This document shows positions 5,819 to 20,447 of a DNA stretch of 64,000 nt, one piece after another; within the stretch, counting starts at the first letter, position 1; each line of letters opens with the position of its first letter. A program made the translations under genes and the position numbers. The DNA comes from Alphaproteobacteria bacterium (GTDB lineage Bacteria > Pseudomonadota > Alphaproteobacteria > CAAHEQ01 > UBA3637), in contig JAFYHG010000008.1 in NCBI GenBank assembly GCA_017539265.1, forward strand, positions 67,354 to 131,353, given 5' to 3'. The notes under the pieces were generated by a model, which was not told where the DNA came from, ran no database searches, and was given only the letters and a program-made list of their open reading frames with translations.

Positions 5819-5903
5819 ATACCTACACAATCGCATAATAATATATTAGCGACCTATCCTTGACAAAAAAGTCTTAACATCCTAAAAACATGAATTTTTT
5901 ATG

Positions 5904-5932
5904 TTGACAAAACGGACAAAAGTATGTATAAT
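5904..5932 (+). promoter_or_regulatory. Perfect consensus sigma70 promoter of the giant autotransporter gene
   Basis: TTGACA (5904-5909), exactly 17 nt, TATAAT (5927-5932). AGGAG RBS at 5949-5953 sits 7 nt before the ATG at 5961. Confidence 0.75.
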
Positions 5933-5960
5933 CAAGGAAAATTTTCGTAGGAGTCGCAAT

Positions 5961-8900
5961 ATGAAAAGATTTCTTTGTTTTGCTCTATGTTTAATTTGCA
6001 TCTTATTTGGTATTTCCGCACAGGCGGGAATTAGTTGTGCCAAAGGCTACATTAACTACAATGGCGCCTGTATCAAAAAACTGGATTGTAAAAATGGTGG
6101 CAAACAAGAAGGTTACAGTTGTACTTGCCCTAAGGGATGGACAGGCGAACTGTGCCAAAAAGCGGCGACTTGTCCTTATAAGGATACCAAGTGTTCCACC
6201 GGATATCATGCAACGGGAAAAACGTGTAAGACAGGAAATAAAACCGTTATTCAATGTGCCGTCAATGAATGTAAGGACTATCCCCATATGAAATGTCCGA
6301 CGGGATATACTTCCACGGGAACTTGTCAATCGGGTAAAACAAAGAGATATAAATGTGATGCTTGTGCCAAAGGATATATCCGGTATAACGGTCAATGTAT
6401 CAAGAAGCTGGATTGTAAAAACGGCGGAAAACAAAAAGGGAACAGTTGCACTTGCCCCGAAGGTTGGACGGGATCAAAATGTGATAAAGCGGCCAGTTGC
6501 CCCTATAAAGACACAAAATGTGCCAAAGGATACCACGAAACGGGAAAAACCTGTAAGACTGGAAAGAAAACCGTTAAAGAATGTAAAGCAAATGCTTGCG
6601 AAGGGTACACATATACAAAGTGTCCGACGGGATATGCTTCCACGGGCAGTTGCCAATCGGGCAAAACAACGAAATATAAATGTGATGCTTGTGCCAAAGG
6701 CTATATCCGGTATAACGGTCAATGTATCAAAAAGTTAGATTGTAAAAACGGTGGAAAACAAAAGGGGAATAGCTGTACCTGCCCCGAAGGTTGGACAGGT
6801 AAACAATGCCAAACCGCTGCTTCTTGCTCCTATAAAACAACCTCTTGTTCCAGTAGTCAAGTTGAAACGGGAAACACCTGTAAATCCGGAAATAAGACAT
6901 ATATTCAATGTGCTTCGTCCTGTCCCAAAGGAAAAGTTAAACAAGGGAAAAAGTGTGTGCCGGCCCCGAATTGTCAAAACGGCGGACATGCAAATGGTCT
7001 AAATTGTGTTTGCCCTGACGGTTGGACGGGAACACTTTGTGAAAAGCCAAAAACATGCCCTGCCGATTATACACAAGAATCTTGTGGCGAAGGATATGAA
7101 CAGGTTGGATCATCCTGTAAGTCAGGGGATAAAACATATGTAGCCTGCACGGAAGCGACTTGCCCCTATAATACAACCAGTTGTACAAGGGGCTATGAAG
7201 AAACGGGTGATACCTGTTTATCGGGAACGACCCTTTACAAAAAGTGCCGTGAAAAATCTTGTGCCGGGTATATCATGGGTAGTTGCCCCCAGAATGCTGA
7301 AGGGTGTGAAATTTGTTATCAGGGTGAGATCGAAACTTTCACTTACACCAAATGTAAAGACGGTTGGACGGGGTTAACCTGTAATGTGCCGGCAAATTGT
7401 CCGTATGATACCATCACTTGTCCGGAGGGTTATGAAGAAACAGGGGAAACCTGCCAATCGGGCGATAATACTTATAGGAAATGTAAACCAACCGATTGTA
7501 CCGCGCAAGGATATAAAGCCACTTGTCCGGAGGGTTATAATTCAACACAAGAATGTTTAAGCGGAACAACGCCTTATTATACCTGTACCCCGAAACAAGT
7601 GCCGGCGGGATATCAATCCGAACCTTGCGGTGCGGGTTATAATCAAGTGGATACTTTCTTGTCGGGTGAAACGACTTATTATAAATGCGAGGCCAAACAG
7701 GTACCAAGCGGCTATCAATCTGCCTCTTGCGGTGCCGGTTATGATCAGGTTGATACCTTCCTGTCGGGTAAGACAACCTATTATAAATGTCAGGCCAAAG
7801 ATTGCTCGGCCTATCAAACCGGTTGTTCGGCGGGATATACCGCAGAGCAATCGTGCTTAAGCGGAACAACTCCTTACTATACATGTGTTCCCAAAGTTTG
7901 TCCGGACGGATATAATACAAAGGGGACCTCCTGTTCGCGGGGCTATGTCCAAGCAGGCGATGTCTGCTTATCGGGCGAAGATACCTATGTGAAATGTGTT
8001 CCCAACACGTGTCCTGATACCCATAATGTGCTCGGCAGTTGCGGGGAAGGATATGTGCAAGTTGGGGAAGCCTGTTATTCCGAAGACAGAACATATGTGG
8101 CGTGTACAGAGGCAACCTGCCCCTATGATACAACCAGTTGTACAAGGGGTTATGAAGAAACGGGCGATACGTGTTTATCGGGAACAACCCTTTACAAAAA
8201 ATGCCGTGAAAAATCCTGCGCCGGATATATCATGGGCAGTTGTCCCCAAAATGCGGAAGGGTGCGAAACCTGTTATCAAGGCGAGATTGAAACCTTTACC
8301 TACACCAAATGTAAAGACGGTTGGACAGGATTAACCTGTAATGTGCCGGCAAATTGCCCATTTGATACCCTTACATGCGAGGGTGGCTATGAAGAAACGG
8401 GTGAAACCTGTCAATCGGGTGATAAGACTTATAAAAAATGTCAACCGATTGACTGTAGCGCTCAAGGATATAAAACAAGTTGTACGGAGGGTTACGACGC
8501 CGTTCAAGGATGCCTAAGCGGAACAACTCCTTATTATACCTGTACCCCGAAACAAGTGCCGGCAGAGTATCAGGTCGCCCCTTGTGGTTCGGGATATAAT
8601 CAAATTAATACTTTCTTATCGGGCGAAACAACTTATTATAAATGCGAAGCCATTCAGGTACCGGATGGCTATCAATCTGCCTCTTGCGGTGCCGGTTATG
8701 ATCAGGTTGATACGTTCTTATCAGGTGAAACAACTTATTATAAGTGCCAAGAAACAGATTGTTCCGCATATCAGACCGCTTGCGGTGCCGGATATGATGC
8801 CACAGAAGCTTGTTTAAGCGGTACAACGCCTTATTATACTTGTACGGAAAAAGAAGTGCCAACCGGCTATGGTGCCGAACCATGCGGTACCGGTTATGAT

Positions 8901-11900
8901 TTGGCTGACACCTTCTTATCGGGGGATAAAACCTATTATAAATGTGTTGCCAAAGAAGTTCCCGCCAGATATCAAGCCACTCCCTGCGGTGCGGGATATG
9001 ATGAAATAAGTACGTTCTTATCGGGAACGGCAACGTATTACGAATGTCAAGAAAAAGATTGTTCTCAATATCAGGCCGGCTGTGGAGAAGGCTATGATGC
9101 CGCACAAGCATGCTTAAGCGGCACAACACCCTATTATACATGTACGGAAAAGCAGGTTCCTGATGGATATTCATCCGAATCTTGCGATGACGGATATAAA
9201 CAAACAGGGACGTTCTTATCGGGTACAACAACATATTATCAATGTGCACCCGCCGATGTTCCGAACGGATATGTTGCCACATCTTGTGGTGCCGGTTATG
9301 ATCAGGTTGATACGTTCCTGTCAGGCGAAACAACTTATTATAAGTGCCAAGAAACAGATTGTTCCGCATATCAGACCGCTTGCGGTGCCGGATATGATGC
9401 CACAGAGGCCTGTTTAAGCGGTACGACACCTTATTATACCTGTACGGCAAAACAAGTACCTGCAGAATATCAGGCTGACCCCTGCGGTGCGGGATATAAT
9501 ACGGCTTCCACTTTCTTATCAGGTGAAACAACCTACTATCAATGCGTTGCCAAGCAAGCTCCGGAAGGATATCAAATGCCGGAATGTGCAGCAGGTTATG
9601 ATGAAGTAGCAACATTCTTATCCGGTGATACCGTTTATCATCAATGTGTTGCTAAACAGGTTCCTCCCGAATACAATGCCGAACCGTGCGGCGCGGGGTA
9701 TGATCAGGTTGGTACATTCCTGTCGGGTGAAACAACTTATTATAAGTGCCAGGAAACAGATTGCTCGGCATATCAGACCGCTTGCGGTGACGGATATGAT
9801 GCAACAGAGGCCTGTTTAAGCGGTACAACACATTATTATACCTGTACGGCGAAAGAAGTACCTGCGGGATACGTTGCCGAACCGTGCGGCGCGGGGTACA
9901 ATACTACTTCTACTTTCTTATCAGGTGAAACAACCTACTATAAATGTGTTGCTAACGCTTGTGACGGTTATCCATATGCCAATGCCTGTCCGACAGGATA
10001 TGCGCCGTCATCCAGTTGTCTGTCGGGTGATACAACGATGTATCAATGTAATACTTGCGCGGAAGGGTATATATCAGACGGCAATGGCGGTTGCGTCCTT
10101 AACGTGCCTCAAATCGGGAAAACAGGAGAGACCAACAATGATACCATCGAGGTAGAAAATACGGGTAATGATGATGTATACGGATTGCATTATGATGTTC
10201 CCGATAAACCCCAATATCATGACGTATTAACCGTTGTAAATGCCAGAAACAGTGAAGCGCAAATATCAATCGAAAATGAAGGGGACGGTAATGTTTATGG
10301 TATCCATGCGACGGGATATGCCGATGCGACGAATGCTTTAGGTGAAAACGCAATCGGAACAATTAATATTTCCAATATCGGAGATGGCGCTGTTTACGGT
10401 CTTTACAGTGAACAGAAAAAAGCATTTAATACCGAAGATAACGGTTCGGGCAGTATATCTATCACCAACGAAGGCGATGGTAATATTTACGGCATTTGGG
10501 GAAATGATGAAGCCGTTAACGCCGATGATGAGGGAGAAGGTACCATTGAAATTTCCAATACCGGTGACGGAAATGTATTTGGCGTATATGCGAAGGCCGA
10601 TTACGCCTCTAACAGTGACGGAACAGGTTCAATATCTATCACTAATATTGGTAATGGTTCTGTCTACGGTGTTTGGGGAAAAGCCAATGATCACCCCAAA
10701 GGTCTGATTGACGCCTACAACGCGGATGACATGGGTTCAAATGGTACTATTGAAATTTCTAATACCGGTGACGGCAATGTTTACGGTGTTTGGGGAAATA
10801 ATGGAGCCGCAAATGCCGGTGAAGATGGTACGGATGGAAGCATTGAAATTTCCAATACCGGATCGGGAAATGTCTATGGTGTCTATGCGAATGGTTGGTG
10901 GGCCCTTAATGCTGCCGGTGGTTTAGGGAATATAACCTTGTCAAATACGGGTGATGGTTCAACTTATGGTTTGTATGCAAAAGAATTTGCTCACAACGGT
11001 TGGGATCCCGCTTTTGCCTCAAGATGGCTTACGGAAGATGATGGTGACGGATGGCTATCCGTGGGACATATCAATATCGAGAATAATGGAACCGGAACCG
11101 CCTATGGCGCACATGGGCTTGAGGGCGCCTTTAACTTTGCCAATGAAAAGGGTACTTCTTCAATTGAAATCGCTAATAACGGGAGTGGTTTAGCTGTTGG
11201 TATGTATGCGCCCGAGGTCAACAATATGGGCAATATCCATATTGAAAATTACGGGAATGGAACGGCCATTGGTCTGTATACTACCCAAACGGCAGAAAAT
11301 ACCGGAAATATTTCCATTGATAACTATAAAAACGGAGTTGCCGTCGGTATCATGGCCCAAGGTGAGGGTGATAAAACGGTAACGAACGCCGGAACAATTA
11401 CTATCCGCGGGAAGCAATCTTTGGTGGAAGAGTCTGAATATCTGTCTAGACCGCAGGTGTGGAGTAATGAGGATAAATTTTGGGATGCGCGTGAAACATA
11501 TGAATATTTTCTCGCTAATCTCGTTAATTTTGAACAATCATATGCTGATATAATTGGCAATTCTGTCTGGAGTGAATATTGGAATTCGAGTGGAAATTGG
11601 GTAGTAGATGCTGAAGATATAATTCCGGAAAGGGGAATAGATGAAGATCAAATTTATTTTGAAAAGAATGACCATAGGGTTACAATACGTGATGATGAGC
11701 ATAGACAAAATGAAGTATTCTGGGAACTAGCCAATGATCTTACATTCAATTCACAACAGGAGGGCGATATCCTCGTAAGAGATATCGTTGATTGGGATGA
11801 TGTTCGGTTTGAGGATGGAAAGTTTGCTGAAACTCCCAGATTAAGTGATTCGGTCTATTATTGGACCGATTCAAAGGGACAAAATCATGCCACATCGGCG

Positions 11901-14900
11901 GGTGAACCGAATACGAGTGATTATACCTATGAAGATTCGGAGGGTACTTCACATTATTTAACGATTGATGGAGAGGGTAATTTAATAATTCCGACTAATC
12001 TTCTTAGCGATTCTACTGCGACTACAAATGCATTAAATGTTTTAAATGAATATAATCAGGATAAGGAAAATTACACAGCGGCATTAGGGATTTTAGAAAA
12101 TGACAGGGGAGAACTTGAATACGCGATTTCCGATTTCAATCAATCCATAGATAATTTACGGGAAACACTTAACGCAGTAAAAGAAGCCTACGGGCGATTT
12201 GTGGATAATTATTACGTTGCCTATGATATGGCACATGAGGAATGGGAAAATGATCGGGAAGGTCTTGCCATCGGTATCTATGGGGATAGGAATACCCATA
12301 TCGTGAATACGGGTAAAATTGTTATTGATAACTCGAAATGGACCTTTGGTATCTATACCGAGGGCGGAGATGTCACAAACCGTGGCCAAATCATTATTGA
12401 CGGCGATTATCTTAGTAAAAATGCCATTGTTTTAAATGGTGGAAACCTGTTCCAAAACGGTTTAATTTATACATATTCGGATTGGAATAATATCCAGCAA
12501 AAAGATTCTCTTATTGGTAAAGAAGGTAGCGTTAACAATGATGTCATTACACTGACTAATAATATAGAACGAGATGTCTATGGAATAAAAGGGATTAGTT
12601 ATTCCGTCAAAAATGCATTTCCAATGATAAACGGAGCAGAAGCAACCGGTTATATTAATATATCCAATTATAGTGATGGCAATGTATATGGTGTTAGCGG
12701 AGATAGTCCAAGAAATGCCCATATAGATCAAAATAATACGATTGCTACGGCCCATATACAGCTTGATAATATTGGTAACGGTAATGTCTACGGTTTGTAC
12801 TCAGAAAGTGGATGGGCCGAAAATATACGTGAAGATGGTGTAACCACAAATGTACATAGTGAAATCATCATTAACAATAAAGGCAATGGTGTTGTTTGTG
12901 GTGTAAAAGGTGAGGGAGAAGGACACAACATAAATATTTGGGCTGACTCAATGCTAAATAGTGATGTCAATGCGTTGATTAATATCACAAACCAAGGAAA
13001 TGGTACGGTATATGGGGTGTATAGTTCAAGCAGAGCCTTTAATATCGGTGGGGCACGTGTTCCGATGGAAAATAGTGATATTTCCAGTATTATTCGTATC
13101 CATAATGATGGTGATGCAGATATTTATGGCGTATACGGTCATGAAGTCCATAATAATGAAATATTTACCACTAATCCCAGTCGGACAGGTCTAGCCAAAG
13201 TATCTATATCTAATACCGGTGCCGGAAATGCTTATGGATTGTTTGGATATAATCCGGATAACATGGATCAAGGGAACGCTTTGTCGATTGTTGAAATGGC
13301 TAATATCGGGAATGGCTTAGCCGTCGGTATGTACGCAAAAAGAGAGGCAAAGAATTCCGGTACGATTACCATTCATAACTTGGGTAACGGAACGGCTGTC
13401 GGGATGTTGGTGGATGATAATGGGAAGGGATCAAACTCGGGCACAATTACGATTGATCGAGAAGCCTACACGGATGATATGGGGACACCGGATGACACGT
13501 CGGATGATGTAACATATGAAGCCACTTTAGGTCGTGGTGGGATGGCCATCGGTATCTATGGTGGTGTTGGTAGTACGATCACCAATACAGAAACCGGTAT
13601 TATCAATATCAGTGGCATCAACAAAGCCTATGGTATCTATAGTGAAAGTGGAAATGTCACAAACCTTGGCCAAATCATCATTAACGGCAATTCAAATCAC
13701 GCCAATGCGATTAAGCTGAATAGTGGAAAATTATTCCAAGACGGAAAATTAATTGTTGCAATAAGTTCAGATGATTGTGACGAAGGATATGCCCTTGATG
13801 AAAACGGTAATTGCGTTTTGAAAGATGAAAATGTTTACGGAAAAGTTTCAGAAAGTAATGATTCTACTTTGAATGTGGTTAATTCAAAGTACGCGGATGT
13901 ATACGGCTTATACGGAAACGGGGAAGTCGTCAACGCCAGAGATAATGATGCTTCAATTTCCGTTACGAATACAGGAGATGGTAATGTTTATGGCGTTTAT
14001 TCACCCGATGATAAGGCGAACAATGTAACAAACGACTTAACCGGAACAATCAATATTTCGAATGCCGGTAACGGAAATGTTTATGGTGTGTATTCGGCCG
14101 AAAGCCTTGCGTTCAATGCCGGTTCCGGAGCCGGAAACATCTTTATTTCCAACGTCGGGACCGGCGATGTCTATGGCGTCTACGGAAAAGAAGAAGCCGT
14201 CAATTCGGATGATTTTTATACAACGGGCAATATTCGGATTTCCAATACCGGATCGGGTAATGTATACGGCCTCTTCTCACCGGAAGGATGGAGCGGAAAT
14301 GCTTGGGACGGAACGGGTAATATTTCTCTGTTAAATACGGGGAATGGTACGACCTATGGTATGTATTCCGGCGCATTGGCTCATAACGGTTGGAATTTTG
14401 ATTTCTTATCCCGTTGGGAAAGCGAAATAAATGCCGAAGATGAAGATCAAGACGAAGGCTATGGTCATATCAGCATCGTTAATAACGGTAATGGGAATGC
14501 TTATGGTATGTTTGGTGCCAGGGGTGCCTTTAACCACTATAATGATGAAGATATCTCCACCATTGAAATTGCCAATATTGGAAACGGTTTAGCCGTTGGT
14601 ATGTATTCAAATGAAGTGAATAATTTGGGTGATATCACTATCCATAACCTTGGCAACGGCACCGCCGTCGGTATGATGACGGGTGATTTCGGTATCGCCG
14701 AAAACAGCGGAAGGATTACAATTGATCGTGAAGCCTATACCGATAATAACGGTACGCCCGATGATACATCGGATGATACAACCTATTCGGCAGCTTCTTC
14801 CGGAAGGGGTGGAATGGCCTTTGGTATCTATGGCGGAAAGAACAGTTTAATCTACAATACCGGTACCATTGATATCCGTGATGCCGAAAAAGCCTATGGT

Positions 14901-17900
14901 ATCTACAGTGAAGGCGGACGGGTTATCAATGAAGGTTCCATTATCATTGATGGTGATGAATTTAGCGCCAACGCCATCAAGTTAAATGCCGGTCAATTCT
15001 TCCAAAACGGTATCTTGACGGCAACGACGGATCCGAACACTTGCCCGGTGGGTTATACTCGAGATGAGTTTGGTCGTTGTGCCTATATTATGAAGAATGA
15101 TTTCCTCAATGATGATACATTAAGTGTCGCTAATACAGACGATGTCAATATTTATGGGCTGTATTATACTGTGCCTAATCAACAAAATTCCGATAGCGAT
15201 ACTATGGTTGGTGTTACTAATGCTAAATATAGTGAAGCGGAAATCTCAATCACAAATGAAAGCGAAGGGAATGTTTATGGTGTGTATGCATCCGGTTATA
15301 CGGATACGTCAAACAGTGCCGGTTATCCGGATGGTATCAATGACGGCAAACAAAGATATTTGGGTGTAATTGATATTTCCAACACCGGCAATGGTAATGT
15401 TTATGGTGTTTATAATGCAGAACATAATGCCTTTAACACGGAAAGCGGTTTAGGCAGGATAAATATTACCAACGCAGGCAATGGTGATGTTTACGGTATT
15501 TGGGGCGGTAATGAAGCCGTGAACTCGGACGGTGATGATTCGTTGGCTAACCTTAGGATTTCCAATACCGGAACCGGAAATGTTTATGGCGTGTTTGCTC
15601 AAGAAAGTTGGGCGGGGAATGCTTGGAACGGAATCGGAAACCTCTCTATATCCAATACAGGAAACGGAACAACCTATGGTATCCGTGCGGGTGATGTTGC
15701 TCATAACGGTTGGGATATAGCCTTTGCGTCCAAATGGGTTCCGGAAGAAGAAATTACTGATGATGACTATTGTTTAGGGGTTGGTCATCTCAAAGTCGTG
15801 AACAATGGTAATGGAAATGCTTATGGTGTGTTTGGACCGGAAGGTGCTTTCAACTATACAACCGATGTGGGGACTTCTACCATTGAAATTGCCAATGTCG
15901 GGAGTGGTTTAGCCGTCGGTATGCATTCAAGTGAAGTAAATAATATGGGTGATATCACTATCCATAACCTTGGAAACGGCGTGGCCGTCGGTATGATGAC
16001 GGGTGATTTCGGTATCGTGGAAAACAGCGGTACGATTACGATTGATCGCGTGGCCTATATAGATGATAACGGCACACCCGATAATACGTCGGATGATGTG
16101 AGATATGAAGCCGCTTTAACGCGTGGAGGTACAGCCATCGGTATCTATGGCGGTGCGGGCAGTACGATTACCAATACGTCGACAGGTGTTATTAATATTA
16201 GCGGCGCTGAAAAAGCCTATGGTATCTATAGTGCTGGTGGACAAGTTGTCAACAATGGTCAAATCATTATCGATGGTATCTTAAAAGGTGATGAAGCCAT
16301 CACACTGGCCGGCGGGAAATTATTCCAAAACGGGAAACTGGTTGTTGGCTCTATTCCGGATAATCTCCAATCAAGGGCCCATATCGTCGGCAAGATTGGG
16401 GAAAAGAATAATGCCACCATAACGATAGAAAATTCGGACTATGTTGATGTTTATGGCATTAGTAGTGGTGTGGATGCTGCAAATGCATCGGCGGAAGATG
16501 ATAACGAAAATGTGGCCGGTACAATAAATATTACCAATACAAATAACGGTAATGTTTATGCCGTGTACAGTGACCAAATGGAAGCCTCTAATGCGGAAGA
16601 CGGATTTGGAGAAATATTCGTCAATAACATAGGAAACGGAGATGTCTATGGCGTCTATGGTAATACCGAGGCCGCCAATGCCGATGAATTTGAAACCGTC
16701 GGTAATATCCGAATTTCCAATGCCGGAAGCGGTAATGTCTATGGCGTATTCGCAAAAGGCGGATGGGCCGGTAATGCCTGGGCAGGTGCAGGAAACCTGA
16801 GCATTTCGAACACGGGTGACGGCACAACCTATGGTCTTTATGCCAGCCAATATGCCCATAACGGTTGGAATTACACCTTCGGTCAAAAATGGTCTATATT
16901 TGACCCGGATGATATCGGTAGTTTAGGCGTTGGCCATATCCGTATCGTTAATAATGGTAACGGAAATGCCTATGGTATGCAGGGTGTAGAAGGTGCCTTT
17001 AACTTTGCCCATGAAAAAGGCGCTTCTTCGATTGAAATTGCCAATGTCGGGAGTGGTTTAGCCGTTGGTATGCATTCAAGTGAAGTAAATAACATGGGTG
17101 ATATCACTATCCATAACCTTGGAAATGGTACAGCCGTCGGTATGTTGGTCAATGATAACGGTGTTGCAGAAAACAGCGGCACGATTACGATTGATCGCGT
17201 GGCCTATACCGATGATAACGGTACACCCGATGACACGTCGGATGATACAACCTATGAAGCTGCCTCAGAACATGGTGGTAGGGCAATCGGTATCTATGGT
17301 GGCAAAAACAGCACGATTACCAATACCGGAATCATCAGCATCACCGGTGCAGATGATGCCTATGGTATCTATGCTGAGGAAGGCTCAACCTTCACAAACA
17401 GCGGTCAAATTATTATTGACGGTGATTCCAATCATGCCAATGCAATTAAATTAAACGGCGGAAAGCTCTTCCAAAACGGTAAATTGATTGCTAATGCCGA
17501 TGTTGAAGATATTACTCATCCGGACACAGGTTCAGAAATTATTTTAAAAACACTGACAGAAGAAGATGATGGAAATAATGAGACAATTAAAGCAGTTGTC
17601 AATTCGACAAGTTCAATTATTGGGATAGAGGCTCAAAATTCTGTCAGTAATATAATACTTGACTCCGGTAGTATGACAGCAACTGTCGATATTACACAAA
17701 GAGGCGTTGGCGATGTTTACGGAATGCGTGGCAATGTCAGTTCTTCTCAAGATATAAAAAATGTCGATTTGGCAGGTGATTCTGCAATGGGGGCTATCAA
17801 AATAACGGATACAAGTGCAGGAACCGGTAATATCTATGGAATGTATTCCAATTCCAATAAACAGGTTGAGAATGCACATGTAGATGGTGAAAATGATTCA

Positions 17901-20447
17901 ATGGCTATGGGAATAATTGACATTACCAATACAAGCGATAAAGATATTTATGGTATTTTAAATTTAGCAGATAATGAATATGATGACGGAGAAAACGGAA
18001 CAATCAATTCGGAAGGTGATGAAGGAACATCCATTGGTTACATTATCATTGATAATTCAGGTAATGGAGATGTTTATGGAATTAAAGCCATAAATCCGCA
18101 ATTTAATTCTGAATCCACAAAGCATGCCGAAAGCAAAGCATACATTAATATTAAAAATTCAGGATTGGGATCTGTTTATGGTATGTATGGCGAAGAAGAA
18201 GTATATAATGCGCGGGCAGGACATGACAGAGAGTATGGAGAGCTTAAAGATTATTCTTCTTCTACCGGTGTCATAAGTATAGATAGTTTTGATTCCAGCG
18301 ATGTTTATGGAATAAAGTCGACATCAGAAACAGCTTCCATATATAATGCAATGGCTTGGGATGCTGCAATGGCAAAAGGAACTATTCGTATTCATAATGT
18401 ACTTGATGGCGATGTCTATGGTATGAGTGGTAAATATATTCAATCTGCAGGAACAGCCACTAATAATGGAATCGCATTACCCAAAGCACCAAATGCCGAA
18501 AGTGTTATTAATATTATAAATCATTCATTGGGCGATAGTTATGGATTATATTCAGATATACAAGACAATATAATCAATCATAGTTCTTATACTAGAGATG
18601 ATGGAATAGCTAAATCTACCCTTGAAATGGCAAATATTGATAATGGTTTTGTTGTCGGTATTTACAGCAAGAACGGAACTGTAAATAACTCAGGGGATAT
18701 TAAAATTCATAACCTCTATAACGGAACTGCGGTTGGTATTTACGCTGATGGAACAACAAATGTTACAAACAGTGGAACCATCACAATCGATCGTGGAAAC
18801 TTTACAGATGATATGGGAACGGAAGATACATCAGACGATGTCACTTACACTTCTCGATCCACAACGGGCGGATTGGCAATCGGTATCTATGGCGGTGCGG
18901 GTAGCACGATTACCAATACCGGAACCATCAGCATCACCGGTGCAGATGATGCTTATGGTATTTACAGCGAAGGTGAAAGTGTTGTCAATAACGGACAAAT
19001 CATGATTGACGGCGTTTTGAAAAATGGGAATGAGGCAGTTGTGCTAAACGGCGGCCGGTTATTCCAAAATGGTAAACTTGTGGCCGCGGGCGGTGCTTCA
19101 TCGATAGAGTTAGGATTAGGAGGATCCACGACATCGGTATCCGAAACAGGTACCTCCACCGAAACACCTAAGGCTTCGTTGAACTTGAACGATTTCGGGG
19201 GTAGCGTTATTGCCTCCGAAACATCTGAATTCATTGTTGAAGGGGCTTTGTCCGGTGATTTAACCATGAACAACAGCGTGATTTCAAACGGTTTCCGGAC
19301 GGTTTATACGGTTCCTGATATGATATTGGCCGGCGATACCAGCGGATTGAACCTGATATCCGAATCGGCTTTGTTTGACGTTTCGTTGGCGGATAACGGA
19401 CACGATGTCGTGATGACAATGCGCGGCTTTGATGCGGCAACGGATAATCGCAGTTTTGCGAATTTCTTGGCCCGTAACTATGCCCTTAAAAACAATGAAG
19501 CGTTCTTTAATACCCTTAAAGAAATCGGGAATATGGCCACTCTGACGGATGGTTTGGATAAGATGATGGGTAAAGAGATGCTGAGTCGCTTTAACTTTGA
19601 AGACATGACGATGATGCGTGAACTCAATTTTGATATGAATAATCACTTATTCAACAATAAGGATTATTACTTCAGCATGGGCGGTTCAGTATCTTCACCG
19701 ATGGCCTTCCGCGGTGATAACGGATCCAACAGTCGGTATAGTCTGGCCAGTAAGAAGAAGGACTCTTGGTCACTGGGCCTTGGAATTGCCTTCACCGATA
19801 TTCGTAGCGATGATGACCATGACAATAACTCGCGTTCGGATACGATGTATCAGATGATTGTGCCTGTTGGGTATCAGGCAAATGGGTTCAAGTTTGTTAT
19901 GTCGCCTCGTATCGGATATGCACGCGGTCATTATGATCGGACCGGGTTCGATAATAAAAACTATGACGGAACGATTGAAAAGAGAATCTTTGGCTTAATG
20001 AACGAAGTCAGATACCCGATTGCTTTGGATAGTTGGCGGTTTGAACCGGCAATGGAATTCAATGCTTTAGGCTATGAACAAAAAGGTTGGGAAGACAAAA
20101 AAGAGTTCAGTTTGAATATCCCGCGGCAGAGAACATACTCTATTGAAAGCGGTATCGGTCTATATGCAACCCATGAAACCAAATGGGGTAAAGATACGCA
20201 ATTCAAATTTACAGCAGGTGTGGCAGCTTACCATGAATTTGCGGATCCTTACCGGATTGATGTGGGTATGGACGGCATGAACGGACGCTTTACTTTACGG
20301 GATGAAAAACGGTCGGATAACCGCGGTGTCGTTCGGGCCGGATTTGAAATCGAAAAGAAAGATTATTCTGTGTATGGCTCCTTTATCTCTTATGTGGATA
20401 AAGAAGTCCGCAGTAAGGCAAAGCTTGGATTTAAGTGGAAGTTCTAA
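5961..20447 (+). CDS. Giant (~4,828 aa) type Va autotransporter / surface adhesin-like protein with EGF-like modules, Cys-rich repeats and a beta-solenoid repeat passenger
   Basis: Uninterrupted ORF. Start placed at MKRFLCFALCLICILFGISAQA (signal peptide, good RBS) because the ORF-track ATG at 5901 overlaps the -35 box. The C-terminal ~260 aa show alternating hydrophobic strands and end in GFKWKF, with the terminal aromatic typical of OMP barrels. Upstream lies a helical linker region (NRSFANFLARNYALKNNEAFFNTLKE...), as in autotransporter domains. Confidence 0.85.
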   Translation: MKRFLCFALCLICILFGISAQAGISCAKGYINYNGACIKKLDCKNGGKQEGYSCTCPKGWTGELCQKAATCPYKDTKCSTGYHATGKTCKTGNKTVIQCAVNECKDYPHMKCPTGYTSTGTCQSGKTKRYKCDACAKGYIRYNGQCIKKLDCKNGGKQKGNSCTCPEGWTGSKCDKAASCPYKDTKCAKGYHETGKTCKTGKKTVKECKANACEGYTYTKCPTGYASTGSCQSGKTTKYKCDACAKGYIRYNGQCIKKLDCKNGGKQKGNSCTCPEGWTGKQCQTAASCSYKTTSCSSSQVETGNTCKSGNKTYIQCASSCPKGKVKQGKKCVPAPNCQNGGHANGLNCVCPDGWTGTLCEKPKTCPADYTQESCGEGYEQVGSSCKSGDKTYVACTEATCPYNTTSCTRGYEETGDTCLSGTTLYKKCREKSCAGYIMGSCPQNAEGCEICYQGEIETFTYTKCKDGWTGLTCNVPANCPYDTITCPEGYEETGETCQSGDNTYRKCKPTDCTAQGYKATCPEGYNSTQECLSGTTPYYTCTPKQVPAGYQSEPCGAGYNQVDTFLSGETTYYKCEAKQVPSGYQSASCGAGYDQVDTFLSGKTTYYKCQAKDCSAYQTGCSAGYTAEQSCLSGTTPYYTCVPKVCPDGYNTKGTSCSRGYVQAGDVCLSGEDTYVKCVPNTCPDTHNVLGSCGEGYVQVGEACYSEDRTYVACTEATCPYDTTSCTRGYEETGDTCLSGTTLYKKCREKSCAGYIMGSCPQNAEGCETCYQGEIETFTYTKCKDGWTGLTCNVPANCPFDTLTCEGGYEETGETCQSGDKTYKKCQPIDCSAQGYKTSCTEGYDAVQGCLSGTTPYYTCTPKQVPAEYQVAPCGSGYNQINTFLSGETTYYKCEAIQVPDGYQSASCGAGYDQVDTFLSGETTYYKCQETDCSAYQTACGAGYDATEACLSGTTPYYTCTEKEVPTGYGAEPCGTGYDLADTFLSGDKTYYKCVAKEVPARYQATPCGAGYDEISTFLSGTATYYECQEKDCSQYQAGCGEGYDAAQACLSGTTPYYTCTEKQVPDGYSSESCDDGYKQTGTFLSGTTTYYQCAPADVPNGYVATSCGAGYDQVDTFLSGETTYYKCQETDCSAYQTACGAGYDATEACLSGTTPYYTCTAKQVPAEYQADPCGAGYNTASTFLSGETTYYQCVAKQAPEGYQMPECAAGYDEVATFLSGDTVYHQCVAKQVPPEYNAEPCGAGYDQVGTFLSGETTYYKCQETDCSAYQTACGDGYDATEACLSGTTHYYTCTAKEVPAGYVAEPCGAGYNTTSTFLSGETTYYKCVANACDGYPYANACPTGYAPSSSCLSGDTTMYQCNTCAEGYISDGNGGCVLNVPQIGKTGETNNDTIEVENTGNDDVYGLHYDVPDKPQYHDVLTVVNARNSEAQISIENEGDGNVYGIHATGYADATNALGENAIGTINISNIGDGAVYGLYSEQKKAFNTEDNGSGSISITNEGDGNIYGIWGNDEAVNADDEGEGTIEISNTGDGNVFGVYAKADYASNSDGTGSISITNIGNGSVYGVWGKANDHPKGLIDAYNADDMGSNGTIEISNTGDGNVYGVWGNNGAANAGEDGTDGSIEISNTGSGNVYGVYANGWWALNAAGGLGNITLSNTGDGSTYGLYAKEFAHNGWDPAFASRWLTEDDGDGWLSVGHINIENNGTGTAYGAHGLEGAFNFANEKGTSSIEIANNGSGLAVGMYAPEVNNMGNIHIENYGNGTAIGLYTTQTAENTGNISIDNYKNGVAVGIMAQGEGDKTVTNAGTITIRGKQSLVEESEYLSRPQVWSNEDKFWDARETYEYFLANLVNFEQSYADIIGNSVWSEYWNSSGNWVVDAEDIIPERGIDEDQIYFEKNDHRVTIRDDEHRQNEVFWELANDLTFNSQQEGDILVRDIVDWDDVRFEDGKFAETPRLSDSVYYWTDSKGQNHATSAGEPNTSDYTYEDSEGTSHYLTIDGEGNLIIPTNLLSDSTATTNALNVLNEYNQDKENYTAALGILENDRGELEYAISDFNQSIDNLRETLNAVKEAYGRFVDNYYVAYDMAHEEWENDREGLAIGIYGDRNTHIVNTGKIVIDNSKWTFGIYTEGGDVTNRGQIIIDGDYLSKNAIVLNGGNLFQNGLIYTYSDWNNIQQKDSLIGKEGSVNNDVITLTNNIERDVYGIKGISYSVKNAFPMINGAEATGYINISNYSDGNVYGVSGDSPRNAHIDQNNTIATAHIQLDNIGNGNVYGLYSESGWAENIREDGVTTNVHSEIIINNKGNGVVCGVKGEGEGHNINIWADSMLNSDVNALINITNQGNGTVYGVYSSSRAFNIGGARVPMENSDISSIIRIHNDGDADIYGVYGHEVHNNEIFTTNPSRTGLAKVSISNTGAGNAYGLFGYNPDNMDQGNALSIVEMANIGNGLAVGMYAKREAKNSGTITIHNLGNGTAVGMLVDDNGKGSNSGTITIDREAYTDDMGTPDDTSDDVTYEATLGRGGMAIGIYGGVGSTITNTETGIINISGINKAYGIYSESGNVTNLGQIIINGNSNHANAIKLNSGKLFQDGKLIVAISSDDCDEGYALDENGNCVLKDENVYGKVSESNDSTLNVVNSKYADVYGLYGNGEVVNARDNDASISVTNTGDGNVYGVYSPDDKANNVTNDLTGTINISNAGNGNVYGVYSAESLAFNAGSGAGNIFISNVGTGDVYGVYGKEEAVNSDDFYTTGNIRISNTGSGNVYGLFSPEGWSGNAWDGTGNISLLNTGNGTTYGMYSGALAHNGWNFDFLSRWESEINAEDEDQDEGYGHISIVNNGNGNAYGMFGARGAFNHYNDEDISTIEIANIGNGLAVGMYSNEVNNLGDITIHNLGNGTAVGMMTGDFGIAENSGRITIDREAYTDNNGTPDDTSDDTTYSAASSGRGGMAFGIYGGKNSLIYNTGTIDIRDAEKAYGIYSEGGRVINEGSIIIDGDEFSANAIKLNAGQFFQNGILTATTDPNTCPVGYTRDEFGRCAYIMKNDFLNDDTLSVANTDDVNIYGLYYTVPNQQNSDSDTMVGVTNAKYSEAEISITNESEGNVYGVYASGYTDTSNSAGYPDGINDGKQRYLGVIDISNTGNGNVYGVYNAEHNAFNTESGLGRINITNAGNGDVYGIWGGNEAVNSDGDDSLANLRISNTGTGNVYGVFAQESWAGNAWNGIGNLSISNTGNGTTYGIRAGDVAHNGWDIAFASKWVPEEEITDDDYCLGVGHLKVVNNGNGNAYGVFGPEGAFNYTTDVGTSTIEIANVGSGLAVGMHSSEVNNMGDITIHNLGNGVAVGMMTGDFGIVENSGTITIDRVAYIDDNGTPDNTSDDVRYEAALTRGGTAIGIYGGAGSTITNTSTGVINISGAEKAYGIYSAGGQVVNNGQIIIDGILKGDEAITLAGGKLFQNGKLVVGSIPDNLQSRAHIVGKIGEKNNATITIENSDYVDVYGISSGVDAANASAEDDNENVAGTINITNTNNGNVYAVYSDQMEASNAEDGFGEIFVNNIGNGDVYGVYGNTEAANADEFETVGNIRISNAGSGNVYGVFAKGGWAGNAWAGAGNLSISNTGDGTTYGLYASQYAHNGWNYTFGQKWSIFDPDDIGSLGVGHIRIVNNGNGNAYGMQGVEGAFNFAHEKGASSIEIANVGSGLAVGMHSSEVNNMGDITIHNLGNGTAVGMLVNDNGVAENSGTITIDRVAYTDDNGTPDDTSDDTTYEAASEHGGRAIGIYGGKNSTITNTGIISITGADDAYGIYAEEGSTFTNSGQIIIDGDSNHANAIKLNGGKLFQNGKLIANADVEDITHPDTGSEIILKTLTEEDDGNNETIKAVVNSTSSIIGIEAQNSVSNIILDSGSMTATVDITQRGVGDVYGMRGNVSSSQDIKNVDLAGDSAMGAIKITDTSAGTGNIYGMYSNSNKQVENAHVDGENDSMAMGIIDITNTSDKDIYGILNLADNEYDDGENGTINSEGDEGTSIGYIIIDNSGNGDVYGIKAINPQFNSESTKHAESKAYINIKNSGLGSVYGMYGEEEVYNARAGHDREYGELKDYSSSTGVISIDSFDSSDVYGIKSTSETASIYNAMAWDAAMAKGTIRIHNVLDGDVYGMSGKYIQSAGTATNNGIALPKAPNAESVINIINHSLGDSYGLYSDIQDNIINHSSYTRDDGIAKSTLEMANIDNGFVVGIYSKNGTVNNSGDIKIHNLYNGTAVGIYADGTTNVTNSGTITIDRGNFTDDMGTEDTSDDVTYTSRSTTGGLAIGIYGGAGSTITNTGTISITGADDAYGIYSEGESVVNNGQIMIDGVLKNGNEAVVLNGGRLFQNGKLVAAGGASSIELGLGGSTTSVSETGTSTETPKASLNLNDFGGSVIASETSEFIVEGALSGDLTMNNSVISNGFRTVYTVPDMILAGDTSGLNLISESALFDVSLADNGHDVVMTMRGFDAATDNRSFANFLARNYALKNNEAFFNTLKEIGNMATLTDGLDKMMGKEMLSRFNFEDMTMMRELNFDMNNHLFNNKDYYFSMGGSVSSPMAFRGDNGSNSRYSLASKKKDSWSLGLGIAFTDIRSDDDHDNNSRSDTMYQMIVPVGYQANGFKFVMSPRIGYARGHYDRTGFDNKNYDGTIEKRIFGLMNEVRYPIALDSWRFEPAMEFNALGYEQKGWEDKKEFSLNIPRQRTYSIESGIGLYATHETKWGKDTQFKFTAGVAAYHEFADPYRIDVGMDGMNGRFTLRDEKRSDNRGVVRAGFEIEKKDYSVYGSFISYVDKEVRSKAKLGFKWKF
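6036..7040 (+). repeat. Four EGF-like six-cysteine modules; the first three lie in a 327-nt (109-aa) tandem triplication
   Basis: Modules at 6036-6155, 6363-6482, 6690-6809 and 6921-7040 share the spacing C-x10-C-x5-C-x10-C-x-C-x8-C, with CKNGGKQxGxSCTCPxGWTGxxC. Copies 1-3 start exactly 327 nt apart. Confidence 0.8.
7041..10094 (+). repeat. Array of ~36-aa Cys-rich repeats (C-G-x-G-Y ... L-S-G-x-T-x-Y-Y-x-C) with nested large duplications
   Basis: The units PCGAGYDQVDTFLSGETTYYKC and DCSAYQTACGAGYDATEACLSGTTPYYTC recur dozens of times. The block at 7138 repeats at 8095 (offset 957 nt). Segments 8688-8845 and 9288-9445 are near-identical at an offset of exactly 600 nt. A third copy lies near 9700-9840. 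Confidence 0.85.
10095..19085 (+). repeat. Six super-repeats (about 1.15-2.4 kb each) made of ~28-32-aa units with the core I-x-I-S-N-x-G-x-G-N-V-Y-G-[VIL]; predicted beta-solenoid passenger
   Basis: Each super-repeat ends with ...TITIDR-AYTDD-GTPDDTSDD-TYEA...GG-AIGIYGG...AYGIYSEGG-V-N-GQIIIDG...ANAIKLNGGKLFQNGKL. The end motifs lie near 12480, 13770, 15033, 16352, 17500 and 19085. Confidence 0.8.
19664..20444 (+). other. Predicted autotransporter beta-barrel translocator domain
   Basis: Amphipathic strand pattern (WSLGLGIAFTDI, YQMIVPVGYQ, FKFVMSPRIGYA, FGLMNEVRYPI, FEPAMEFNALGY, IESGIGLYAT, FKFTAGVAAYHEF, VRAGFEIEK, VYGSFISYV) and the terminal KLGFKWKF. Confidence 0.75.

Follow-up and report, generated by a model that had tools for sequence, protein, structure and literature searches.

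Introduction

The locus raises two questions: what kind of protein is built from a repeat of two levels, in which units of about 30 aa are grouped into six super-repeats, and whether such a protein forms one continuous helix or a chain of separate segments. The repeat region lies at positions 10095-19085 of the window, the whole stretch of 64,000 nucleotides that was analysed, and the source genome is a MAG. With good confidence, the region can be regarded as the beta-helix stalk of a giant autotransporter adhesin of type Va, produced by an uncultured alphaproteobacterium of the gut or rumen whose genome is small.

Results and discussion

Layout of the gene and its modules

The repeat region is enclosed by an ORF of 4,848 aa at 5901-20447 on the forward strand. 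A database copy (P0002) of 4,828 aa is 100% identical to the protein of the window. A Sec-type signal peptide was recognized by inspection from the ATG at 5961, MKRFLCFALCLICILFGISAQA, followed by G. The features are as follows.

5961-20447, + strand: giant autotransporter gene; the probable ATG at 5961 gives 4,828 aa, and the frame is open from 5901
6027-10094, + strand: Cys-rich EGF-like array; 146 Cys, ending in the first Cys clasp (10056-10094)
10095-12482, + strand: module 1, aa 1399-2194; approximately 10 long coils, then the conserved block
12483-13772, + strand: module 2, aa 2195-2624; conserved short-coil block at 13287-13772
13773-15035, + strand: module 3, aa 2625-3045; Cys hairpin at 13776-13814; AlphaFold2 model
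15036-16352, + strand: module 4, aa 3046-3484; Cys hairpin at 15042-15080; conserved block at 15879-16352
16353-17501, + strand: module 5, aa 3485-3867; conserved block at 17031-17501
17502-19085, + strand: module 6, aa 3868-4395; conserved block at 18618-19085
19086-19667, + strand: linker, pre-barrel and helix; second AlphaFold2 model, linker of low confidence
19668-20447, + strand: C-terminal beta-barrel translocator, ending in ...KLGFKWKF and a stop codon; identified with Foldseek

The EGF-like array, which gave weak Pfam matches (EGF_DL_JAG / EGF), forms the portion of the passenger farthest from the membrane. At the other end, a pre-barrel beta region (approximately 19203-19421) and a helical region with a long pore helix (approximately 19428-19655) were seen in the AlphaFold2 model.

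Six homologous modules of 383-796 aa each were found within the repeat region. When module 3 was compared with the entire protein by BLASTP, five more full-length copies were recovered (E 1e-70 to 1e-153), with identities of 56-58% to modules 4 and 5 and 40-45% to modules 1, 2 and 6. The module ends at 12482, 13772, 15035, 16352, 17501 and 19085 agree within 3 nt with the six super-repeats of the original prediction, which were to end at 12480, 13770, 15033, 16352, 17500 and 19085. A module is made up of approximately 7-10 coils, each 28-34 aa long, and after them a conserved block of about 160 aa. Module 3 has 7 long coils of 28-48 aa and then 6 short coils (14559-15035), and in module 1 an insertion of about 270 aa (11409-12224) divides the conserved block. 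Module 6, which adjoins the barrel, is the most divergent of the six. At the DNA level no two modules shared more than about 80% identity over 300 nt, and long identical tracts were absent. The modules are therefore old duplications, and both an assembly artefact and a recent duplication were ruled out.

The 30-aa coil

The consensus of the repeated unit was G-x-I-x-I-S-N-x-G-x-G-N-V-Y-G. A strict GNVYG-type pattern occurred 35 times and a looser coil pattern 59 times within the modules and once outside them, compared to a mean of 3.4 and a maximum of 9 for the looser pattern in 200 shuffles. This confirmed that such units recur dozens of times, as had been claimed. In the leading part of a module most units were 29-31 aa apart, whereas the distance in the terminal block was about 24 aa.

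No match to the 30-aa coil was found in the searched Pfam and NCBIfam libraries or in PDB sequences, the searched Pfam library being one that did not include the newer family PF27417. Scans of the Pfam and NCBIfam libraries with the whole protein, the modules, the insert of module 1 and the C-terminus gave only weak EGF matches in the N-terminal array. Neither phmmer of one module and of the C-terminus nor the module profile gave a match in the PDB. When the whole protein and individual modules were run through hmmscan (E <= 1-10), PF12951, PF02415 and PF03212 were not detected; in this search the HMMER filters could mask very weak PATR, Chlam_PMP or pertactin matches. The unit had been described as different from the PATR and chlamydial Pmp repeats, and this was upheld in the libraries searched. 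PATR and Chlam_PMP (PF12951, PF02415) are likewise short Gly/Asn-rich repeats forming autotransporter beta-helices, whereas a GNVYG and ISN motif with a period of 30 aa is found here.

Fold of the module and secretion class

AlphaFold2 modelling of a single module, module 3, resulted in an all-beta solenoid (pLDDT 86.7) of 14 coils with three strands per coil, and thus in neither a non-solenoid nor a disordered structure. The AlphaFold alignments were shallow, with 14 and 7 rows that were partly paralogous modules. One unit of about 30 aa corresponds to one three-stranded coil in the model, in agreement with the beta-solenoid proposed earlier. In Foldseek the best matches of the module model were the autotransporter beta-helices Fap2, Ag43, pertactin and TibA, with low TM-scores of 0.1-0.3 that support the fold class alone. 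By the module model and Foldseek, a beta-helical passenger is situated between the signal peptide and the barrel.

The model of the C-terminal 424 aa (AlphaFold2, pLDDT 75) contained helices at model residues 262-337 followed by about 12 long strands; the exact strand count of the barrel is uncertain because the last strand was of low confidence. Foldseek matched this model to the barrels of AaaA, EstA, EspP, NalP, Hbp, AIDA-I and BrkA (probability 1.0, E down to 5e-8). The C-terminal domain is predicted to fold as a type Va autotransporter barrel, and the match to barrels of this class supports the assignment of the protein to the autotransporters that was made originally. A match to PF03797 is supporting evidence for the type Va class and not a defining feature of it. 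No match of the C-terminus to PF03797 was observed at E <= 10. Homologous C-termini are present in the relatives P0024 (E 1e-129) and P0062 (E 1e-40), which match PF03797 at 1e-16 and 6e-27, respectively. The C-terminal aromatic beta-signal, KLGFKWKF at the end of the protein of the window, is represented by the ends KYNF or KWKF in relatives. The 146 Cys of the passenger fit awkwardly with classical type Va secretion.

The conserved block

Each module was originally thought to terminate in the same cap. The block is indeed present in all six modules, but it is no capping structure. The AlphaFold2 coil table resolves its approximately 160 aa into six shorter coils of 24-32 aa, which prolong the helix and are of a more conventional type than the long GNVYG coils. 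Identity among the six modules was 62% in the conserved block versus 40% in the coil region. Across the family the mean frequency of the top residue was 0.58 in the block versus 0.23 in the coils, and column occupancy was 0.96 versus 0.54. Judged from these alignments, the block is the conserved core of the family and its most conserved part. Of 103 relatives, 101 have their last conserved block directly adjoining the translocator, and 85 possess only one module. Therefore the super-repeat is a duplicated whole passenger. At the sequence level the block resembles the membrane-proximal end of ordinary passengers such as YdbA and Fap2. Fap2 was the sole PDB match of the conserved-block profile (E 1.5e-6), a repeat-biased match confined to the short-coil block, the best single stretch having an i-Evalue of 0.0037.

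At the first level of the proposed architecture, one unit of about 30 aa (x-I-x-I-S-N / G-x-G-N-V-Y-G-V-Y / x-A-x-N-A) would make one turn of a three-stranded parallel beta-helix. At the second level, a whole-passenger module would comprise a short N-terminal hairpin, variable long GNVYG coils and the invariant six-coil block of about 160 aa. A total of about 85-90 coils would give a beta-helix of roughly 40 nm, a stalk that would hold the 1,350-aa EGF-like Cys-rich array off the cell. Secretion through the barrel would proceed from the C- to the N-terminus, so that the conserved C-terminal block of each module would emerge first. Its conservation and position suggest that the block may template the folding of the more variable coils emerging after it, in which case the stalk would fold module by module.

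The block also carries a protruding Asp-rich loop, ITIDR-x-x-Y-TDDxGTxDTSDDxTY. Occurring once per module, this acidic loop could, by its conservation and position, be a repeated binding or Ca2+ site. A further reading is that the entire block is a ligand- or Ca2+-binding domain, present in six copies for multivalent adhesion and conserved for binding rather than folding. The loop, which projects from the helix, shows strong conservation: R, D, T, S, D and Y do not vary among the six modules, the loop as a whole is partly conserved family-wide, and the insertion of module 1 is located in the same loop, as would fit an exposed functional site. However, the loop is shorter and non-acidic in many relatives, and conservation is strongest in the structural strand and turn motifs HNLGxGTAVG, AIGIYG and NxGxIxIxG. 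A binding domain is accordingly possible but rather unlikely as the reason for the conservation.

Junctions between modules

Cys pairs of the form C-x-x-G-Y-x7-C are located at aa 1386/1398, 2626/2638 and 3048/3060 (window positions 10056-10094, 13776-13814 and 15042-15080), immediately before modules 1, 3 and 4. Clasps had been noted at junctions 1, 3 and 4, and are present there; the spacing of five to six residues given for them was not confirmed, as 11 residues separate the two Cys of each clasp and the spacer after Tyr is x7. Across the family, junctions measured 1-477 aa, and 34 of 55 contained at least 4 Cys, i.e. EGF-like inserts. Such variable, insert-tolerant junctions agree with the "beads on a stalk" suggested for this protein. 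The suggestion fits less well with its own junctions, where the distance from the last strand to the first coil of the next module is only about 20-30 aa and the AlphaFold model is poor (pLDDT 47-63).

The short junctions would also suit a single rigid rod, in which the six modules are stacked coaxially into an uninterrupted beta-helix, as in Fap2, and the super-repeat is a mere trace of duplication without structural meaning. The junction motif IGKxGExNNDTIxVxN is conserved and was itself modelled as strands, and in Fap2 a beta-helix runs for about 2,900 residues and kinks only once (PMC12397386). A coaxial stack is nevertheless hard to require when homologous junctions in the family take up 40-477 aa of EGF-like, Cys-rich sequence; the low pLDDT of the junction and the disulfide hairpin predicted at three junctions also argue against the rod, which is considered the less probable arrangement. 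The comparative evidence favours a stalk segmented into discrete modules over one continuous helix, and the short, insert-tolerant junctions would make the rod segmented and not seamless. A more far-reaching form of the segmented stalk is put forward only tentatively: a type Va passenger in which EGF-like modules with disulfide bonds take turns with beta-helix cassettes that fold independently, each from a conserved nucleus at its C-terminal end.

The family and its duplication history

The family comprised 168 representatives among 1.84 billion proteins, and its members were confined to gut and rumen Alphaproteobacteria. Several paralogues occur per genome, with five in the genome of the window. 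The 'family' and 'order' genome searches covered the same 80 genomes. From 1 to 8 conserved blocks are present per protein, and the number of coils per module also varies widely. The single-module genes at loci L058 and L074 extend past the edge of the locus. The NCBI name of relative P0011, DUF2807, stems from a separate short-repeat region at residues 1108-1230, and no DUF2807 match was observed for the protein of the window.

In a tree of conserved blocks, modules 3-5 formed a clade (99/94) that was joined by module 2 (93/99), and module 6 grouped with the single-module relative P0026 (98/86). The tree indicates that modules were amplified independently in different proteins. Modules 2-5 would have arisen by tandem duplication within the lineage, module 6 being the ancestral copy adjoining the barrel.

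The array could instead be chiefly a variable surface coat, its module and coil numbers shifting by recombination and thereby varying antigenicity or length, with no specific mechanical role. The wide variation in coil and module number, the several paralogues per genome and the independent amplifications are what such a coat would be expected to show. Ongoing recombination within the gene is, however, unlikely because of the limited DNA identity between modules and the lack of long identical tracts. The block furthermore appears more conserved than the coils, which is consistent with purifying selection. A variable coat is thus regarded as improbable. It is hardly credible that the modules are surface-displayed enzymatic beta-helices (polysaccharide lyase, hydrolase or depolymerase-like), and this was rejected since the polygalacturonases, alginate and capsule lyases and phage tailspikes in the Foldseek list were weak matches (E > 0.1, probability < 0.15), no Pfam enzyme family was matched, and conservation falls not on any catalytic motif but on the Gly, Asn, Ile, Tyr and Ala residues that make up the helix core.

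Comparison with known systems

A precomputed match to PF27417.1, which we take to be Pfam BigA_3rd, is recorded for the protein of the window and for relatives, including P0016, which lacks a translocator. The match is placed in the module, at an approximate position that was derived indirectly. P0179 and P0180 differ in this match although their modules are identical over residues 240 to 653. Since PF27417 is recorded on the protein of the window, within the module, the conserved block probably belongs in part to an existing family, whereas the 30-aa unit matches none in the libraries searched. No mention of PF27417 was found in a literature search.

The last 280 passenger residues of E. coli YdbA align collinearly with the conserved block and pre-barrel (hhalign 86%, E 5e-6), compared to a probability of only 22% against the whole module profile. 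Unlike the protein of the window, YdbA has no GNVYG coils, tandem whole-passenger modules or Cys-rich domains. BigA_beta repeats (PF25783) were not matched anywhere in the genome of the window, with a positive E. coli control.

Fap2 of Fusobacterium nucleatum (PDB 9qe7) is, like the protein of the window, a giant type Va adhesin with a beta-helix passenger, and was the top Foldseek match of the module model (E 2.4e-4, TM 0.16), a weak and repeat-driven likeness of high bias. The Fap2 passenger has been solved as a beta-helix rod about 47 nm long that bears lateral extensions and binds receptors at its distal end. It provides a structural precedent for autotransporter rods of giant size, and no sequence relatives were reported outside Fusobacteriales (PMC12397386). 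In contrast to the protein described here, Fap2 is one continuous helix and lacks a recurrent module of about 420 aa, EGF-like inserts and a 30-aa GNVYG coil. Sequence homology to the Fap2/RadD adhesins across the passenger was not found, the only profile match being the repeat-biased one in the short-coil block.

Ag43 / AIDA-I / TibA and pertactin also combine a right-handed, three-sided beta-helix passenger with a 12-strand barrel, and this group appeared in Foldseek for both models. They differ in having coils of about 19-25 aa in a single helix of about 500 aa with no super-repeat, and no Pfam or PDB sequence match connected them to the protein of the window. Both the overall fold and the class of secretion are already known; it is the modular version of a well-known protein class that is unusual.

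Implications

The usual view of an autotransporter passenger is of one beta-helix whose folding starts at a single C-terminal nucleus and proceeds in one direction. The present family is a natural series of 1 to 8 tandem complete passenger modules, sometimes with disulfide-rich domains between them. It thereby makes testable whether each module needs its own nucleus for folding during secretion, and how very long (about 40 nm or more), Cys-containing passengers pass through a type V system. If the segmented passenger is real, it would be a jointed fibre of beads and spacers like eukaryotic matrix proteins, its cassettes could be freely duplicated, lost and interleaved, and many disulfide-forming segments would have to cross the classical autotransporter pathway. 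The members are lineage-specific surface proteins of uncultured gut and rumen Alphaproteobacteria, with several paralogues per genome of 1-2 Mb, and are likely the main contact organ of these bacteria.

Gene and protein layout

The repeat region at window positions 10095-19085 lies entirely inside one plus-strand open reading frame (5901-20447), which encodes 4,848 aa. The public database copy of this giant autotransporter has 4,828 aa, 20 aa fewer than the mechanical ORF. Because of this length and the typical signal peptide read from there (MKRFLCFALCLICILFGISAQA), the start codon is probably the ATG at 5961.

Layout of the giant autotransporter (plus strand)
N-terminus, from the probable start ATG 5961: signal peptide, by its typical sequence
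About 1,350 aa: cysteine-rich EGF-like array, holding 146 of the protein's 152 Cys
aa 1399-4395: six super-repeats (modules 1-6), from the module alignment
453 aa: C-terminal region, ending ...KLGFKWKF, from the sequence

Many relatives from the protein database searches (P0004, P0007, P0008, P0016, P0179) carry a leader of signal peptide, ankyrin-like segment, hydrophobic Ala/Gly stretch and poly-Gly run ahead of their Cys-rich or beta-helix parts. This leader is missing from the window's protein. A long same-strand gene run elsewhere in the window (27487-48126, minus strand) has a strong negative GC skew.

The two-level repeat

The original prediction of GNVYG-type units of about 30 aa inside six super-repeats was fully borne out. 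When module 3 was compared with the entire protein by BLASTP, five further full-length copies emerged (E 1e-70 to 1e-153). Modules 4 and 5 share 56-58% identity with it, and modules 1, 2 and 6 share 40-45%. The six module ends proposed earlier agreed with a six-way alignment to within 3 nt. The strict GNVYG-type motif was found 35 times in the protein. A looser coil pattern occurred 59 times in the modules, compared to a mean of 3.4 and a maximum of 9 in shuffled sequence; the rest of the protein has a single instance. Units were mostly spaced 29-31 aa apart, and about 24 aa within the terminal block. DNA identity among modules was at most about 80%, which excludes an assembly artefact as the source of the copies and indicates that they are old.

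The Cys clasps proposed at junctions 1, 3 and 4 were located as pairs at aa 1386/1398, 2626/2638 and 3048/3060, immediately ahead of modules 1, 3 and 4, each with 11 residues between its two Cys. Isolated Cys2333 (window 12897) and Cys3291 (window 15771), inside modules 2 and 4, have no obvious partner; one of them stands for the Tyr of the GNVYG motif (GNGVVCGV).

Fold of a module

AlphaFold2 was used to model the last part of module 2 together with the entire module 3 (aa 2463-3050), from a 14-row alignment of paralogous and homologous modules. The predicted structure was all beta (mean pLDDT 86.7, pTM 0.75) and had three strands per coil, in agreement with the predicted beta-solenoid. One GNVYG unit is modelled as one three-stranded coil, as exemplified by the strands LTGTINISN, VYGVYS and LAFNA. 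Module 3 comprised 14 coils in the model.

Elements of module 3 (plus strand, AlphaFold2 model)
N-terminal hairpin: holds the Cys pair
Seven long coils: 28-34 aa; in one of them a Trp-rich loop (low confidence) brings the length to 48 aa
Six short coils: 24-32 aa, together the conserved terminal block

The terminal block had been described as a capping domain. It is not one: in the model its six shorter coils carry the helix onward, so the block is a second coil class extending the helix. The Asp-rich segment TDNNGTPDDTSDD forms the loop leaving one short coil.

The Trp-rich loop (AHNGWxxxFxSxW and an acidic tail; window 14325-14470, aa ~2820-2852 in module 3) had pLDDT 56-61; equivalents of this loop and the 48-aa coil are present in modules 1, 3, 4 and 5. 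In module 1, the exact loop that reads TDDNGTPDDTSDD in the other modules accommodates about 270 aa of inserted, non-repetitive sequence that is acidic and rich in Trp/Tyr (window 11409-12224, aa 1837-2108). The insertion had no Pfam matches.

Foldseek of the module model against the PDB gave autotransporter beta-helices as top matches, Fap2 (9qe7, E 2.4e-4), Ag43, pertactin and TibA, and also listed tailspikes and lyases; with low TM-scores of 0.1-0.3, these matches speak for the fold class only.

Secretion class

The C-terminal region had no Pfam match of its own. Its AlphaFold2 model (pLDDT 75) combined a beta region with a helical region, in which one helix is long, and about 12 long strands, and matched the type Va barrels AaaA, EstA, EspP, NalP, Hbp, AIDA-I and BrkA in Foldseek with a probability of 1.0. 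The region is homologous to the C-termini of relatives P0024 (E 1e-129) and P0062 (E 1e-40), both of which match Pfam Autotransporter PF03797. Furthermore, the conserved block and the pre-barrel region are collinear with the final portion of the YdbA passenger from E. coli (hhalign probability 86%, E 5e-6, 251 columns). Barrel model, relatives and YdbA alignment together establish the protein as an autotransporter, of secretion class type Va.

The super-repeat as a duplicated passenger

A six-module profile matched only 168 proteins among 1.84 billion representatives (E <= 1e-3), nearly all of them sharing the giant autotransporter's C-terminal domain. Among the 103 relatives having both conserved block and translocator, the last block directly adjoins the translocator region in 101 and is the single block in 85, which indicates that the family's basic unit is a one-module autotransporter. 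By this comparison, the super-repeat of the giant autotransporter is that entire passenger module, repeated in tandem.

The conserved block was 62% identical among the protein's own modules, and the coil region 40%. In a set of 94 non-redundant modules, the most common residue had a mean frequency of 0.58 in the block and 0.23 in the coil region, and column occupancy was 0.96 and 0.54, respectively. The block is thus the invariant core of the family module, and the difference in occupancy implies that long-coil number differs among modules.

Duplication history was taken from a maximum-likelihood tree of conserved blocks, from which the module 1 block was left out because the insertion splits it. 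Modules 3-5 formed one clade (99/94), joined by module 2 (93/99), and the module 6 block paired with that of a single-module protein (98/86). These groupings indicate that module 6 is the ancestral copy adjoining the barrel and that modules 2-5 are within-lineage duplications. In other giant relatives, module amplification is independent. Some giant relatives have a third type of repeat, in which short GNGNI / NxGxG coils follow one another in long runs (P0004 aa ~1860-2300, P0005 ~1410-2030, P0007, P0011 1108-1230), which the window's protein does not have; the NCBI name of P0011, 'DUF2807 domain-containing', stems from this region.

Relation to known repeats

The modules had no matches in local Pfam, NCBIfam or PDB sequences. 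The proposed distinction from PATR and chlamydial Pmp repeats held, as PATR, Chlam_PMP and pertactin were not matched in local Pfam. Precomputed database annotation places a newer Pfam family, PF27417.1, on the giant autotransporter and relatives. It appears to lie in the module, since P0016 carries it without a translocator and others carry it alongside PF03797. P0179 and P0180 differ in their PF27417 match, yet their modules are identical over residues 240-653, and the conserved-block profile matched Fap2 weakly, in the short-coil block. From these observations and the YdbA alignment, we think that PF27417 would extend over the short coils and the pre-barrel part rather than over the 30-aa GNVYG coil. 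BigA_beta repeats were absent from the genome, which places the protein outside the BigA family.

Junctions and stalk length

The 55 module-to-module junctions of the family were 1-477 aa long (median 51), with no Cys in 17 and at least four in 34. In many, the two modules are separated by a single EGF-like unit or several, with the pattern CAEGYIxxNGxCYxxLxC... The mini Cys clasp shares the C-x-x-G-Y...C pattern with the first hairpin of this unit and may be read as its minimal version. The original prediction of beads on a stalk was partly supported: junctions that accept insertions argue for modules as discrete folding units, but the protein's own junctions are short (~20-30 aa) with a conserved motif, IGKxGExNNDTIxVxN, and the modelled junction between modules 2 and 3 had pLDDT 47-63. 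The joints may be flexible or may stack coaxially.

The typical rise of a beta-helix is 0.48 nm per coil. With about 85-90 coils, extrapolated from module 3 and the unit counts, the stalk would be about 40 nm long. This is comparable to the 47 nm rod of Fap2 (PMC12397386).

Distribution

Nearly all relatives come from MAGs of uncultured Alphaproteobacteria, from rumen, ruminant gut and the guts of humans, mice and rabbits. In an even class-wide sample the module was found in 4 of 401 genomes, all four in the own genome's family, within which it occurs in 14 of 80 species, for the most part in one copy. A literature search found no paper describing this autotransporter family. The own genome (1.47 Mb, 98.6% complete) holds five paralogues of the translocator domain.

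Further translocator-domain paralogues (four, two at contig ends)
G000:C4:12236-13504
C27:31047-32228
C17:1-966
C21:1-381

At least two of these paralogues have lengths of 1,370-1,505 aa, and their module matches are fewer and weaker.

Mechanism and meaning

By analogy with other type Va proteins, the passenger would be exported C-terminus first. Each module's conserved block would then emerge first and may act as a template for the variable coils that come after it. The array could serve as a long, possibly jointed spacer presenting the EGF-like tip, and the conserved acidic loop, one per module, is a putative repeated binding or Ca2+ site. The two-level repeat forms the beta-helix stalk in a family of autotransporters that is undescribed and restricted to one lineage. 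Beta-helix fold and type Va secretion are both ordinary and already known; new are the tandem whole-passenger modules with insertion-tolerant junctions and the family-specific 30-aa coil.
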